From contig JAGVWJ010000003.1 in NCBI GenBank assembly GCA_018304385.1, forward strand, positions 1-35,400: a stretch of DNA of 35,400 nt, read 5' to 3'. Source of the DNA: Candidatus Micrarchaeota archaeon (GTDB lineage: Archaea > Micrarchaeota > Micrarchaeia > Anstonellales > Bilamarchaeaceae). Within the stretch, counting starts at the first letter, position 1; each line of letters begins with the position of its first letter. Shown piece by piece: positions 6,991-35,349 of the stretch. Made by a program: the position numbers and the translations under genes. The notes under the pieces are model-generated. The model searched no databases and was not told the origin of the DNA. It saw only the letters and a list, made by a program, of their open reading frames with translations.

Positions 6991-9180
6991 ATGGTGCAAA
7001 AAGGAATTTTATTGATTTTTTTAGGAATTTTATTAGTTTCTAATATTGGATTTACGATGTTTGTTGGTGGGATTGTAGCACACGTTACTAATTGTGCAAC
7101 AGAAGCTATACCAACTGGGAATAGTGTACCGGGGGCCATAAGTTCAGCTGCAGTTACTGGCAACGCAACCGGAAATTGGACGCTTGGAGCAAACTTATCT
7201 GTGTCTACCTCTGGTTATGGCAGTGGAAGGGTTGTTTTTAATACTACTGGTTCTACCATTGCTGCATGTATTAACATAACTGCTGATAACGTTGTATTCG
7301 ATATGAATGGTAGTGTGATTCAACTTTCTAATGCTGCTGGATCAACTCCAACCGTAGTAGGTATAAGGGTGGAAGGTGCTAATAATGTGACTATTAGAGA
7401 CGGTTATATTAATGTGAGTACTACCAGCGTGACAGAGGCAACAGCCAACTATTTCGGTATTATGATAAATGGCAGTTCGAACGTAACTATAATAAATGTT
7501 AGTATGACTTCAATGAGTGGTCCAAATGTTCCTGTGACAACCAGTATTGGTATTAATATAAGTAATCTAGATAATGCAATTGGGTCTACCCCTGGTGGTA
7601 TTTTAATAAACAACACCAATATTTCAAATGTTAGTACAGCCGGAATTAAAATAGAAAATTCAACAAACGTTACTATTCTTAATTCTTGGTTTAATGCAGG
7701 AGGTTCGGGAACCTGGTTGAATGGGGTGCCTGCAATAAGTGCAACCCACCAAAATGTGACTAGTGGTACTAATGGTGGCGATAGATACGTAAATGTAACA
7801 ACCACTATGTTTAATTCAACACTAGCAAATGTCACCGTCTTCTTTTATGGCAATCTTTCATTTGGTCCGCAGCACCTTATGCCACTTCCAGATAATCTGC
7901 CTGCAGGTGGTGGAGCCATAGGTGGAACAAAGAAATGGTTTGGACATATATTAAACTTTAGCAGCTCAGATAGTGGTTCAATTGCAAACATTACCTTCCA
8001 TTATACAACCAGCCAGATAACAACAGCCCCAGCTGAAGACAGGTTGACCATACATAGGTTGGGTTCATCAACCGGTGACGTCTGGTCTCTTCCTATGGAT
8101 GTAACAAGGAATCTATGGTATACCAATTCAGTAACAGCTACAAACGTTGAATTATTCAGTGCATTTGCGTTATTTGGTGACGATACTTATAATAATCCAG
8201 ACTCCTCAACTACTAGCAATCCATATTCAGGCAAATCAGACGTTCCAAATCCAACACTAGATTATTCATGTTCTGATAAGAAAATAACAGTAAAAACTGA
8301 AAGCGAGCTTAGTGGTGGCAGTATTAGTATGAAATATTATTGCGCTGCTTCAGCTTCATGTGGAAGCTGCAATGGAGGTGCAGTAGGTAATTATGACTCA
8401 TCAATAAGCTCTGACGGAACAGCAACATTTGATTACTTTGGTCCAGGTGAATATCAATTTGAAGTTACTTCTGTTGGTTCTAGTGAAAACTACAGACCAA
8501 CTGTTTGGTATAACTCCAATTGGGCATGCTACAAACCAGATGAATCATGTACAAAAGAATGTACTCCAACAAAAGAAAGCTGTGCAGATGGTAGCTCAAT
8601 AGAAACTAAGAGTTGCGATGCACAAGGAAACTTAGTTCCAACAAACAATGTTTGTCCAAAGTCAGCACCACCACCAGCGCCAGAACCTGAACCAGAACCT
8701 CAACCAGCACCTACTCCAGCACCAACACCATCTCCGACCCCTCAGCCACCGCCACAACCACCAAAAGTAACCTTAGATCTTACAACTCCTGATAAAGCAG
8801 AGGTAGGAAAAGAATTTGTAGTAAAGGCAACAAAAGATGGCAAGGCTTGTACAGGGTGCTCATTAGTTGTAAAAGGTCAGGATGGTAAAGAGACAAAATT
8901 CACAACTGACAAGAATGGGGAAGCAAAGGTTACACTTGCAAATAAAGGGTCTTATGATCTATCATTATTAACTGACCAAGGAACAGTTGCAAAGAAGAGA
9001 ACTGTTAGTGTAGAATTAGCACTTGGCACAGCAGGGCCAGAAAAGAAAACTGGTGCAGGATTCCTTGAAGATCCAGGCGTTCAAACAGGCTTAATTGTAG
9101 TTGTTGTAGTCCTAGTGCTTGCAGCAGTTTATTTTTGGTTCACTGGTCAAGGTAAAGGAAAGCCTGCTTACAAGAAATAA
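6991..9180 (+). CDS. Large cell-surface glycoprotein/adhesin: beta-helix-like Asn/Thr-rich region, Cys-rich region, Pro-rich linker, Ig-like domain, C-terminal TM
   Basis: Signal peptide, many N-x-S/T sequons, repeated NVTI strands, a PEP/PAP/PTP linker (~8665-8765), a TDKNGEA Ig-like motif and a hydrophobic C-terminal anchor with basic tail. Confidence 0.75.
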   Translation: MVQKGILLIFLGILLVSNIGFTMFVGGIVAHVTNCATEAIPTGNSVPGAISSAAVTGNATGNWTLGANLSVSTSGYGSGRVVFNTTGSTIAACINITADNVVFDMNGSVIQLSNAAGSTPTVVGIRVEGANNVTIRDGYINVSTTSVTEATANYFGIMINGSSNVTIINVSMTSMSGPNVPVTTSIGINISNLDNAIGSTPGGILINNTNISNVSTAGIKIENSTNVTILNSWFNAGGSGTWLNGVPAISATHQNVTSGTNGGDRYVNVTTTMFNSTLANVTVFFYGNLSFGPQHLMPLPDNLPAGGGAIGGTKKWFGHILNFSSSDSGSIANITFHYTTSQITTAPAEDRLTIHRLGSSTGDVWSLPMDVTRNLWYTNSVTATNVELFSAFALFGDDTYNNPDSSTTSNPYSGKSDVPNPTLDYSCSDKKITVKTESELSGGSISMKYYCAASASCGSCNGGAVGNYDSSISSDGTATFDYFGPGEYQFEVTSVGSSENYRPTVWYNSNWACYKPDESCTKECTPTKESCADGSSIETKSCDAQGNLVPTNNVCPKSAPPPAPEPEPEPQPAPTPAPTPSPTPQPPPQPPKVTLDLTTPDKAEVGKEFVVKATKDGKACTGCSLVVKGQDGKETKFTTDKNGEAKVTLANKGSYDLSLLTDQGTVAKKRTVSVELALGTAGPEKKTGAGFLEDPGVQTGLIVVVVVLVLAAVYFWFTGQGKGKPAYKK

Positions 9181-14035: not shown

Positions 14036-14362
14036 GTGGAGATTGTAATTGATGCAAATATTCTTTTTGCTATTATGATAAAGAGCGGTATTACGGAAAG
14101 AATTTTGCTTGCAGATAATTTACATACCTATGCTCCAGAATATATTTTTTTGGAATTTAAAAAGCACAGGAATGCTATTTTAAGGATTACGAGCAGGGAA
14201 GAATCAGAAGCATTAGTACCTGATAAAGATGATGCTGCGTACCTTGCGGTTTGCATTGCGAAGAGAATGCCCTTGTGGAGTAATGATAACCATTTTGCCC
14301 ACCAAGACAAAGTAAAAGTTTTTACAACCCAGGAGCTAATTAAATATCTCGGAATAGAATAA
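14036..14362 (+). CDS. PIN-domain toxin (VapC-like) with an apparent ~30-aa internal in-frame deletion
   Basis: IVIDANILF, PDKDDAAYLA and LWSND. GTG start after a GAGGAG SD. It is 108 aa versus 137 aa for the paralog at 34936. Confidence 0.8.
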   Translation: MEIVIDANILFAIMIKSGITERILLADNLHTYAPEYIFLEFKKHRNAILRITSREESEALVPDKDDAAYLAVCIAKRMPLWSNDNHFAHQDKVKVFTTQELIKYLGIE

Positions 14363-25152: not shown

Positions 25153-26148
25153 ATGAGAAGACTAGCCTTGGGCCGTGAGCCTTGTGCAGTGAGCGCTATA
25201 CTACATGCAAATGATCCCTTTAGACGATATAAACCAGAACCAACTCATGAAGTAAGAAAACCAGGTATTACAGGCCAATCATTTATAGAACAAGCAAGAA
25301 GAACAAGACAAATGCTAAAGGAAATGGACCCAGAAGTAGCAAAACAACAAATTGAATTTCACAGAGATTTAGATCTATTCGAAGCTTTTGCATTAGCAAA
25401 AAGAGAAGGAGAACTAATAGTTCCAAACATTGTTCATGACAAAATTCTAATCAGAACAACAGGTTGGAGATATTCAGACCAAAATTATCCCGTATGGACA
25501 GGTACTTTAATTATTTATGAAAAACCAGATACGCCATTTGAAGATAAGGTTGTATTTATTCGGAAGAATCTTTTCAAACAGGATAACGTATATTCTATTT
25601 CCTTCAAAGTCCCAGATCAATTCCAAGGTAAACCAAACTGTGCATTAGCAATAGAACATCCAGACTTTGATTTGATAGAGTTAGGAAAAAACAAATATGA
25701 AATTAAACTGGTAGAAGGAGCAGATGTCCATCTAATAGAAAACTTTCCTAAAGAACACAGTTGGCACATGCCACATGCTGAAACAGGAATCCCACAAGGC
25801 GAACCAGTAGAAGGAGCATACAAAGTAAGATATTTATGGAGAACTTCTTATTCTTACATTGGTCCTTTGGTTCGCGGCTTCGTTGACATCTTCGGTGGAA
25901 GGCCAGGTGTCGTTGCGAAGGAGCACGATGTTTTCGATCGTTTTGGGATGGCAGTAGTCAGTATTGGTCGTCCTGAAGAGCGGAGCTCTCCCGATTGTTG
26001 CGTTGCGCAACAATTGGTATCTTGTCGCAACGCGACAAGTTTGTTGGGAGGTCGAGAAGTACGCAGTATTTCGAGAGATTTGTCCGTAGGACAAACAGAT
26101 CGTGACCGAAGGTCACTGGACGACGCGCCCGCGCTGAAAAACGACTAG
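25153..26148 (+). CDS. Probable DGR variable (target) protein with a C-terminal CLec-type variable region; remote target
   Basis: The C-terminal YIGPLVRG-xxxxxx-GR-xx-V-x-A-xxxxxxx-RFG-x-AVV pattern resembles DPANN DGR variable regions. NNY codons occupy the putative variable positions, GC content rises locally, and a GGA-loop hairpin lies ~30 nt downstream. Confidence 0.7.
   Translation: MRRLALGREPCAVSAILHANDPFRRYKPEPTHEVRKPGITGQSFIEQARRTRQMLKEMDPEVAKQQIEFHRDLDLFEAFALAKREGELIVPNIVHDKILIRTTGWRYSDQNYPVWTGTLIIYEKPDTPFEDKVVFIRKNLFKQDNVYSISFKVPDQFQGKPNCALAIEHPDFDLIELGKNKYEIKLVEGADVHLIENFPKEHSWHMPHAETGIPQGEPVEGAYKVRYLWRTSYSYIGPLVRGFVDIFGGRPGVVAKEHDVFDRFGMAVVSIGRPEERSSPDCCVAQQLVSCRNATSLLGGREVRSISRDLSVGQTDRDRRSLDDAPALKND
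25967..26124. repeat. Closed multi-hairpin palindromic element (six triloop hairpins)
   Basis: Stems at 25977-89, 25991-26017, 26021-39, 26052-74, 26079-95 and 26102-16, enclosed by GTCGTCC/GGACGAC. Confidence 0.85.
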
Positions 26149-32310: not shown

Positions 32311-32427
32311 GTGCCAGCAGCAGTGCGCTTTCGCAGTCATAGACCACTACAAGCAACACCGTGAAGGGTCTTAACTTCTGAGTTCGATACGGGATCAGGT
32401 GTAACCCCCTTCCTATGGCCGCTGAAC
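32311..32427 (-). rRNA. rrf: 5S rRNA (stand-alone)
   Basis: The minus strand reads UCAGCGGCCAUAG..ACACCUGAUCCCGUAUCGAACUCAGAAGUUAAG..GCUGCUGG. Helix I and the conserved loop C (CCCG..UCGAAC) are present. Confidence 0.95.
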
Positions 32428-33055: not shown

Positions 33056-34621
33056 ATGACTTCTGAGCATAAACACTGGAGCGAACAGCTTGCAGACCGC
33101 GTAATTAGCGAGAAGAAGGAACCGTATTCTGTTACATCTGGCATGACAACGAGCGGACCTGCGCATTTTGGCACTATTTGCGAGTTTTTATTTCCATTTA
33201 CTATAAGCAAGATGCTTGAAGCAAGAGGCAAGAATGTTACATTCTATTTGGTCGGTGATATCCTAGATGCATTTGACAGAATCCCTATTCCAATGGAAAA
33301 ATATAAAGAGCAACTAGAACCGCACTTGGGCAAGCCGCTTTGTGATGTTCCTGATCCAACTGGCAAAAGCAAAAGTTTTGGCGATTATTTCTTAGATGAG
33401 GTGCGCGAGCTAATGAAAAAGCTCAATGTAAAATGCAATATTCTATGTGCAAACGATATGTATGCTGCAGGTCAGTTCGATGAATGGGCAAAATTCTATT
33501 TAAAAAATGAAGAAAAGGCAAAAGAGCTTGTTGAGCGAACTAGCGGAAGGCAATTACCAAAGGATTTTTCAGTAATAATGCCAATTTGCGAAAAATGCGG
33601 CAAAATCGCGACTACGCGAGTAACAAAACATGATGTTGATTCTTATGAATATGCATGCGACAAAGATGCGAAATATACAAAAGGCTGCGGCTATATTGGT
33701 AAGGCCAAAATAAGCGATCACAAGTATAAAATACTATGGCGATTGCACTGGCCAGCTTGGAAGCAGATACTGAAAACAAGCATAGAAGGTGCTGGCGTTG
33801 ATCATCATACTCAAGGCGGAAGCGAGGATACTTGTAAAGCTATTACGCTAGAATTAATGAAAAAAGATTATCATATTCCTTATCGCTATGGGTTTATTCT
33901 ACTGGAAGGAAAAAAATATTCAAAAAGCAAAGGATTAGGTATTGGTGTTAGCGAATTGCTTTCTTTGATACCACCAGAGATTCTAAAATATCTGCTCTTG
34001 CGTCCTGATTTAGAAGAAAATATCGATATTAACCCAACTCCAGAAAATCTATTGCGTGCTTATGAAGAATTTCAACAGGCAGGCGAGCTAGCAAAGAAAA
34101 ACATTGATGAGCTGAACCGTGCTGATAGAAAGAAAGCACTAGCATTTACGCTTTCAACAGATAAGATGAATCGATCAGCAGTAGGCGATCAAATATCTCG
34201 AAATCATGATTTCTCGATGCACTGGCAAGCAGCATTTCTAGATGTTCTTCTATACTATCAGGTCTATTATGACTGGAAAAAGGTAGGAGAGGCGCTTAAC
34301 GATAGCAATGGAGTAGAATATCTTAAACCCTATGTAGAAGAGTGGCTAAAGCGTTCGTTCGTTCCAGAAGATTATAACTTCAAATATCAGCCTAAGAAGG
34401 CAGAAGGAAAGGTGCATGATTTCATTTCACAGTTAAATGAAAAAATGGATGCGCTCGCTATTCATAATGCTGTTTTCGAGTTTGCAAAATCAAATGGTAT
34501 TGAGCCAAAAGAATTTTTCAAGCAACTCTATCAAACATTAATCGGAAAAGATCGTGGTCCACGATTAGGTAAGTTGATTTTTGCGCTAGGTGTTGAGAGA
34601 TTAAAGAAGGATTTGTTATAG
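33056..34621 (+). CDS. lysS: Class I lysyl-tRNA synthetase
   Basis: SGMTTSGPAHFG (HIGH-like), WRLHWPAWK, KYSKSKG (KMSKS-like) and GKDRGPRLG. Confidence 0.96.
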   Translation: MTSEHKHWSEQLADRVISEKKEPYSVTSGMTTSGPAHFGTICEFLFPFTISKMLEARGKNVTFYLVGDILDAFDRIPIPMEKYKEQLEPHLGKPLCDVPDPTGKSKSFGDYFLDEVRELMKKLNVKCNILCANDMYAAGQFDEWAKFYLKNEEKAKELVERTSGRQLPKDFSVIMPICEKCGKIATTRVTKHDVDSYEYACDKDAKYTKGCGYIGKAKISDHKYKILWRLHWPAWKQILKTSIEGAGVDHHTQGGSEDTCKAITLELMKKDYHIPYRYGFILLEGKKYSKSKGLGIGVSELLSLIPPEILKYLLLRPDLEENIDINPTPENLLRAYEEFQQAGELAKKNIDELNRADRKKALAFTLSTDKMNRSAVGDQISRNHDFSMHWQAAFLDVLLYYQVYYDWKKVGEALNDSNGVEYLKPYVEEWLKRSFVPEDYNFKYQPKKAEGKVHDFISQLNEKMDALAIHNAVFEFAKSNGIEPKEFFKQLYQTLIGKDRGPRLGKLIFALGVERLKKDLL

Positions 34622-34680: not shown

Positions 34681-34717
34681 GTTATACCCAACTTTTCAGT
34701 TGGTCATAGGTGATAGC

Positions 34718-34939
34718 ATGGCGAATATGACATTAGCGATACCAGAAGGGCTTTACAAAGAGATGCAACAACACCCAGAATTCAAATGGAGTGAAATTGC
34801 TAGAGAAGCCTTTGAAAAGAAAATCAAGGAACTGCATTGGATTGATCACATATTAAGAAACAGTGAACTAACTGAGCAAGATGCAGAAAAGATCGGACAT
34901 AAAATTAAGAATGAAATGGCAAAGAGGTTTCTGAAGTGA
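34718..34939 (+). CDS. RHH/CopG-like antitoxin (VapB-like)
   Basis: NMTLAIP..EFKWSEIAREA; GGTGA SD; GTGA overlap with the PIN gene. Confidence 0.8.
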   Translation: MANMTLAIPEGLYKEMQQHPEFKWSEIAREAFEKKIKELHWIDHILRNSELTEQDAEKIGHKIKNEMAKRFLK

Positions 34940-35349
34940 AGCCAAAATTAATAGTAAACACTAATAGAATTATTGCAGCATTAATAAAAGATTCATTCTC
35001 TAGAAATTTATTATATCACTTAGAGGCGGATTTTCTTGGCGTAGGATTTAGTAAAAAAGAGGTTAATAAATATAAAGATTACATTATTAAAAAGGCAAAA
35101 ATAACAGAACAGGAGTTTGAGAATTTATTAGAAAAAATATGCAGTAGAATTATTTTTATAGATGAAGAACTACTGAAACTATATAGAGAAGAAGCAAAAA
35201 ATATAATGCTGCATATCGATCCTGGTGACGTTGTTTTTATTGCTGCAGCATTGGCTGCTGGTGCTGATATTTGGAGCGATGATCCACACTTTACAAAACA
35301 AAAGAAAATAAAGGTTTGGAGAACAGCAGAACTATCGAATTTATTGTAA
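34936..35349 (+). CDS. PIN-domain toxin (VapC-like) with the first catalytic Asp replaced by Asn
   Basis: LIVNTNRII (normally DTN/DAN), DPGDVVFIA and IWSDDPHF. Confidence 0.82.
   Translation: MKPKLIVNTNRIIAALIKDSFSRNLLYHLEADFLGVGFSKKEVNKYKDYIIKKAKITEQEFENLLEKICSRIIFIDEELLKLYREEAKNIMLHIDPGDVVFIAAALAAGADIWSDDPHFTKQKKIKVWRTAELSNLL

Follow-up and report, generated by a model that had tools for sequence, protein, structure and literature searches.

A probable mobile twin-hairpin repeat as the source of a 17-residue in-frame insert in a Micrarchaeota lysyl-tRNA synthetase

The window analysed here, a 35,400-nt stretch of contig JAGVWJ010000003.1 from a Candidatus Micrarchaeota archaeon (assembly GCA_018304385.1), carries the gene lysS for a lysyl-tRNA synthetase (LysRS; Table 1). 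The encoded protein matches the Pfam model PF01921 at E=2e-77, with the catalytic-domain match spanning residues 6–360, scores 266.3 bits against the NCBIfam model TIGR00467 (cut-off 147.55), and matches the P. horikoshii LysRS-I structure (PDB 1IRX) at E=1.8e-44. The 1.5-Mb source genome, binned from a metagenome, comprises 65 contigs and is 89% complete; in it, one class I LysRS copy was found and a model search detected no class II LysRS above cut-off. The lysS product is therefore the sole LysRS seen in the 89%-complete genome.

Within lysS lies an in-frame stretch of 51 bases that sets this gene apart from its relatives. Searching 40 related genomes, we recovered and aligned 28 LysRS sequences, and the 17 residues are missing from every one of them, including that of the same-genus genome G001, which is 78% identical; such a gap had been predicted in a preliminary description of the window. 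At the DNA level the G001 gene reads GAC AAG ATG CAC TGG, and here 51 extra bases follow the ATG. As that description had stated, two copies of GATG stand 51 nt apart, start to start, and deletion of 51 nt restores ..TDKMHWQAAF.. with the frame kept. This direct repeat leaves the register of the insert free by 4 nt, such that it can be shifted back to 34165–34215. Because all of the outgroups are without the 17 residues, the indel is an insertion.

Table 1. Features of the lysS locus and related repeat copies. Positions are those of the window except where a contig (C) or locus (L) is named.
Feature	Position	Strand	Basis
lysS, class I archaeal-type lysine--tRNA ligase, 521 aa	33056–34621	+	ORF, PF01921, TIGR00467, 1IRX
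In-frame insert, 51 nt, 17 aa (residues 372–388)	34169–34219	+	missing from 28 relatives and P0002; R1 alignment
Left GATG of direct repeat; its ATG is the ancestral Met codon	34165–34168	+	G001 orthologue
Right GATG, coincident with the element's conserved 3' end (..CTCGAT(C/G))	34216–34219	+	copy alignment
Weak hairpin 1 on two GATC palindromes, replacing the family GTTTG..CAAA hairpin	34173–34190	+	folds; 17-nt insertion in model alignment
Hairpin 2 (CTCGAAA..TTCTCGA) without the 4-nt loop, including the 14-nt palindrome	34197–34217	+	match to C6:8042–8075
Canonical twin-hairpin copy in hairpin array	26045–26106	-	R1 71.5 bits, E=2e-17 genome-wide, third best match
Leader copies	C4:23057, C6:8040–8075, C35:11025–11088, C40:11152–11214, C56:2561–2631 (G000, this genome); L090:1470–1532		

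The empty form of the same protein is also on record. A public 504-aa protein, P0002, is identical to the 521-aa LysRS at 504 of 504 shared residues and is without exactly the 17 residues; it is recorded from three contigs (JGI/Logan/ENA). Ten contigs (NCBI, JGI, Logan, ENA) carry the insert-bearing 521-aa protein, and one further contig encodes a 292-aa fragment in which the insert is present. These records establish a true presence/absence polymorphism among near-identical genomes, rather than an artefact, and the insertion appears to be recent, as judged by protein identity. A further public record, P0071, is a predicted gene of 134 aa whose first residue is the very Met that follows the insertion site; it occurs on two contigs from ENA, of which one measures 110,894 nt. 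Most likely the record reflects a contig edge, with assemblies broken where the polymorphism lies; a possible alternative is a variant of the insert that breaks the frame and so divides lysS in two.

An AlphaFold2 model of the 521-aa protein, computed from the 28-sequence alignment, has a mean pLDDT of 91. The insert falls after the catalytic-domain match to Pfam and before the helical C-terminal part of LysRS; here residues 372–385 have a pLDDT below 50 and lie in the region's single long coil, with helices 355–367 and 394–404 on either side. The insert is thus predicted to be a disordered loop separating two helices, which need not disturb the fold; the preliminary description had proposed modelling whether it sits in a surface loop, and the model does place it in a low-confidence loop. 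The loop at the insertion site has the same length in 27 of the 28 relatives, which makes its extension here unusual, and it adjoins the nearly invariant W390. We presume the longer LysRS to be functional.

The insert is a member of a dispersed repeat family, for which we built a covariance model, R1, from 12 aligned copies with the lysS copy excluded. A canonical copy of this twin-hairpin repeat measures ∼45–51 nt and consists of hairpin 1 (GTTTG..CAAA), a TCT linker and hairpin 2 (CTCGAAA..TTCTCGA), with conserved ends, NTC on the left and AT(C/G) on the right. The 12 copies align well, with compensatory changes in 10 of 15 predicted stem pairs, and none of the copies has an Rfam match at gathering or at E<=1, save for one irrelevant 20-bit match. 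Further copies in the genome had been predicted from the window, and they exist: the pattern originally proposed occurs 3 times, a loosened version of it 11–13 times, and R1 gives 32 matches at E<=1, of which 19 are at E<=0.001. We put the family in this genome at about 20–30 copies. At E<=0.001 there are 34 copies in G002, 29 in G005 and 4 in G001, against the 19 here, and none in 24 of the 41 genomes searched; G001, G002 and this genome (G000) belong to one genus, and G005 to another. Stop-free frames are common in the family, numbering 91 of 144 versus 52 in shuffles, and three copies are open in all six frames, versus 0.3% of random genomic 51-mers. Two contigs of the assembly end in or beside near-identical copies (C42:1–56 and C65:6564–6651), one of these being a tandem pair. 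Since these contigs end at the repeat, it seems to have broken the assembly, and true copy numbers are probably above our counts.

R1 aligns to the lysS insert from end to end (34164–34224) with a weak score of 17.1 bits, corresponding to E=0.16 genome-wide and 0.004 in 42 kb, and the limits that it sets agree with those given independently by the protein alignment. A sequence profile made from the 11 other copies, again without lysS, matches 34186–34218 at E=0.0057 over the 1.5-Mb genome. Of the parts that define the family, linker, hairpin 2 and both ends are preserved in the lysS copy, while hairpin 1 is replaced. By whole-genome blastn, 34190–34219 is identical at 30 of 30 aligned bases to C6:8042–8075, which has 4 extra loop bases (E=0.006), and the 5' 21 nt of the insert have no blastn match elsewhere in the genome. 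The RNA fold of the lysS copy, at -8.3 kcal/mol, is no better than that of shuffled sequences (z=+1.7). The lysS copy is a degenerate, loop-less member of the family. We also note that insert bases 34171–34180 are complementary at 9 of 10 positions to lysS bases 34120–34129, 41 nt upstream; the probability of this by chance is roughly 0.07, and it may either record a switch of template or be meaningless.

Kinship between the insert and the hairpin array of the same window had been proposed earlier from a few short matches, and the sequence facts behind that proposal all check out: the insert holds a perfect 14-nt palindrome (at 34200–34213), its bases 34191–34204 match the reverse complement of 26068–26081 at 13 of 14 positions, its TTCTCGA recurs at 26052–26058, and both places form a TCGA-closed stem with the same 2-nt bulge. 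The kinship itself is supported, with one qualification. Profile and model assign insert and array to the same family, but the insert's nearest relative is a copy of the leader subfamily described below (C6, ∼8042–8075), not the array copy, which is read through in the tail of the ORF 25153–26148. Allowing up to 2 mismatches, the 14-mer occurs 5 times in the window versus 0.88 expected, a number that none of 100 shuffles reaches. The lone 13/14 match is in our estimate near chance level, and the relationship between insert and array is carried by the family evidence. A match to the 14-mer at window position 14342 is isolated and has no hairpin, and was treated as chance.

The leader subfamily consists of copies that bear a Shine-Dalgarno sequence. 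The lysS insert has a CAAATAT linker and a right arm ending in CTCGATG in common with copies on contigs C4, C6, C35, C40 and C56. In these five, loop and right arm together read GGTGAT, 7 nt, ATG, and that ATG opens a long ORF; the genes downstream are mutually unrelated. A sixth leader copy is found in the same-genus genome G002, at the start of a 299-codon ORF, and in all six the last bases are exactly the start codon of a long ORF, while four other relatives contain none. The leader element thus seems, from its position and sequence, to supply the ribosome-binding site. Its left arm can pair with the GGTGAT-containing part and might occlude it. The lysS copy is without the 4-nt loop and therefore without GGTGAT, and for want of this loop we rejected the idea of an internal translation start at the Met after the insert. 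A hypothetical lysS copy with the 4-nt loop would be 55 nt in length, which would break the frame.

It had also been proposed that the palindromic family enters essential genes in frame, on the strength of lysS only; four more cases with exact empty sites now support this for important genes of the lineage. The lysS gene of G005, in the other genus, has its own 16-aa insert at a different site, between the conserved TRVxxHD and YEY motifs, which is an antisense copy of the repeat (R1 E=9e-12) and is missing from all other LysRS compared. The remaining three are in this genome: type 2 IPP isomerase (IDI-2) carries a 16-aa insert that is missing from proteins 91–92% identical to it, a carbon-nitrogen (CN) hydrolase carries a 15-aa insert missing from 10 relatives, and NurA carries a 16-aa insert missing from G002 and most others. 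The CN-hydrolase insert is read in the same element frame as that of lysS (..QISRN..), and again stands before a conserved Met codon. All five in-gene inserts are multiples of three (51, 48, 48, 45 and 48 nt). Taken together, the comparisons support a small palindromic family whose copies enter important genes of the lineage with the reading frame kept. Two observations on the orthologues may be added. The NurA orthologue of G001 (L133) has a different insert of ∼10 aa in the same loop, which seems prone to repeated insertion; and the CN-hydrolase orthologue of G015 (L081, G015:C4:58005–58928) has its own lineage-specific inserts of 8 and 18 aa at other positions, which have no R1 match and may belong to another repeat family.

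At the junctions of the in-gene copies, the direct repeats measure 4 nt in lysS, 3 in the CN-hydrolase gene, 3 in G005 lysS, 1 in IDI-2 and 8 in NurA, and each of the five overlaps the element's own terminal bases. A fixed 3-nt duplication at ATC/ATG, as suggested by the two lysS genes and the CN-hydrolase gene, fails on IDI-2, on NurA and on a wider set of 56 aligned copies from six genomes. In that set, left and right flanking trinucleotides are identical in 24 cases versus 20.5 expected (P=0.05); given that this is barely above expectation, they are mostly conserved element ends and not duplications. Variable junctions of this kind argue against a cut-and-paste transposase with a fixed stagger, and are compatible either with insertion into targets that mimic the element's end or with microhomology-primed copying. 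Searches of the 89%-complete assembly for a mobilising enzyme returned no Y1_Tnp domain (PF01797; control genomes were positive) and no TnpB zinc ribbon (PF07282), and with these two models no parent insertion sequence was identified. Nor does a small GIY-YIG nuclease track the repeat: PF01541 matches are confined to ORFs of 527–566 aa in 10 of the 41 genomes, and the element-rich G000, G002 and G005 are not among these 10.

Our preferred reading of these results, to which we would give a probability of roughly 80%, is that the 51 bases were inserted recently and represent a degenerate copy of a mobile but non-autonomous miniature element of Micrarchaeota, twin-hairpin in structure and specific to the lineage. 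That the repeat is mobile DNA at all we infer from its distribution and from the empty sites. The lysS copy would derive from a young subfamily, normally located at gene starts, that has both GGTGAT and a terminal ATG in hairpin 2. A leader-type copy would have landed on an internal Met codon of lysS, and the GATG repeat would have arisen from the overlap of the target ATG/GATG with the 3' end of the element itself. Because the junction repeats vary from 1 to 8 nt, priming by microhomology is a possible mode of integration. It is the missing 4-nt loop that makes the lysS copy a multiple of three, and the insert would be translated as a 17-residue extension of the loop. It can survive in the lone LysRS gene, as we understand it, because it is a multiple of three, has a stop-free frame and lies in a disordered loop.

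A more far-reaching version of this reading is speculative, and we regard it as rather doubtful. In it, the repeat spreads without a dedicated transposase, by copying that is primed by microhomology, its own end pairing with the target, and the young Shine-Dalgarno-bearing subfamily is a movable cassette for starting translation whose landing sites are ATG codons; genes hit at their start would gain a ribosome-binding site from it, and in lysS and the CN-hydrolase gene it would have struck internal Met codons. If true, the cassette would spread by itself, altering how translation is initiated in DPANN archaea and at times remodelling essential enzymes.

Among explanations that need no mobile element, the one to which we give most weight is a one-off accident of repair or replication, in which microhomology primed the copying of a C6-like leader to mend a break or a stalled fork in lysS, with no need for regular mobility. 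The junction repeats are indeed short, variable and always over the element's own end, the transposase searches (Y1_Tnp, TnpB zinc ribbon, GIY-YIG) were negative, and the insert has both a unique 5' part of 21 nt and the 10-nt stretch complementary to sequence 41 nt upstream, all of which speak for such an accident. Yet at least five separate in-frame insertions of one family are seen in four genes and two genera, and the copy number differs between 4 and 34 within a single genus. Repeated insertions and differing copy numbers indicate a recurrent process, so the accident survives just as a mechanism of spreading, and as an account of the insert in its own right we consider it unlikely. Less likely still is an adaptive extension of the LysRS loop, selected for some new interaction and using the repeat just as raw material. 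The insert form does outnumber the empty form on record, by 10 contigs to 3, but contig counts are not allele frequencies; and while the insert adjoins the nearly invariant W390, 27 of 28 relatives keep the loop length, disorder is predicted for the insert, and similar peptides occur in unrelated enzymes.

Two further possibilities would remove the insert from the protein or from the genome, and we give each of them very little credence. At its junctions an archaeal BHB intron shows a 4-bp helix with a 3-nt bulge on either side. A clean 51-nt indel could in principle mimic such an intron in the lysS mRNA, whose removal by the tRNA-splicing endonuclease would yield a 504-residue protein; however, in none of the five registers are there 4/4 central-helix pairs or flanking helices around 3-nt bulges. 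The insert is moreover in frame and stop-free, which a spliced intron would not require, and the four other in-gene copies are likewise multiples of three. An artefact of assembly or amplification, such as a palindrome formed from chimeric reads, might be suspected from the perfect, loop-less palindrome within the insert and from the origin of the genome as a metagenome bin of 65 contigs. Against this, the same 521-aa protein is recorded from ten contigs in four sources, with the 292-aa fragment on another, the sequence is recognisable as a genomic repeat family, and the frame is kept.

In-frame colonisation of housekeeping genes by palindromic sequences is a textbook curiosity of Rickettsia. 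The Rickettsia palindromic elements (RPEs; Ogata et al. 2000) are described in reviews (PMC2229807, PMC10969869) as dispersed palindromes of ∼100–150 bp, confined to Rickettsia and fused in frame into many conserved genes. The twin-hairpin repeat resembles them in being a dispersed palindrome with open frames, found between genes and in frame inside housekeeping genes at fold-compatible sites, in a small, reduced host genome and with no transposase known. It differs in that its inserts are 45–51 nt, a third of the size, with two short, covarying hairpins, whereas an RPE of ∼100–150 bp is a single long palindromic stem; in its DPANN archaeal host, for which no sequence kinship with elements of the bacterium Rickettsia is expected; and in that the lysS case has an exact empty allele, the protein being otherwise identical, on record. 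Another known group, REP/REPIN elements, owes its mobility to RAYT (Y1) transposases, and by definition a REP lies outside genes. With these and with IS200/IS605-derived hairpins the present family shares short imperfect palindromes, conserved stem-adjacent bases, many copies and no regular target duplication; unlike REP/REPIN elements, it comes from a genome in which Y1 transposase and TnpB were not found, and it is also read through in genes. The palindromic repeats with coding potential of Methanocaldococcus jannaschii (Suyama et al. 2005, cited in PMC2229807) are likewise an archaeal family with open frames fused into protein genes, in a lineage and with a sequence that differ from ours. 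MITEs of archaea and bacteria (reviewed in PMC10969869) are similarly small, non-autonomous, multicopy and patchy among close genomes, with empty/filled polymorphism, but the twin-hairpin repeat is far shorter and has neither the usual terminal inverted repeats nor a duplication of fixed length (1–8 nt). The comparison with RPEs and Methanocaldococcus repeats offered in the preliminary description is therefore apt as regards behaviour, the two being analogues and not relatives; by this analogy, we would describe the twin-hairpin repeat as an RPE-like phenomenon in DPANN archaea, and as a member of neither family.

A full-text literature search for palindromic repeats in Micrarchaeota returned only CRISPR-related and unrelated papers. 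The same outcome as in Rickettsia is now seen in DPANN archaea with a much smaller element, and what is new is the insertion in lysS together with an exact empty allele of it, an independent insertion into the lysS of a second genus, the tie of the insert to a Shine-Dalgarno-bearing subfamily, and the junction analysis of the in-gene copies. The case is an unusually clean one, as the organism's lone LysRS is public in two forms that differ solely by the 17-residue insert. This pair of alleles makes it testable whether the insert is neutral, costly or useful to an aminoacyl-tRNA synthetase, at what rate such inserts arise, and whether a 50-nt hairpin element, in genomes that show no recognisable transposases, moves with or without the help of an enzyme. 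For annotators, the implication is that a loop confined to one lineage in a DPANN protein may be an inserted repeat.

Elsewhere in the window, a 5S rRNA gene lies at 32312–32426 on the minus strand (Rfam RF00001, 62.9 bits). Immediately downstream of lysS (34700–35349), a 79-aa ORF with no Pfam match is followed by a 137-aa PIN_2 protein (PF10130, E=2e-24) whose start overlaps the end of that ORF, a layout that looks like a toxin-antitoxin pair of the VapBC type.
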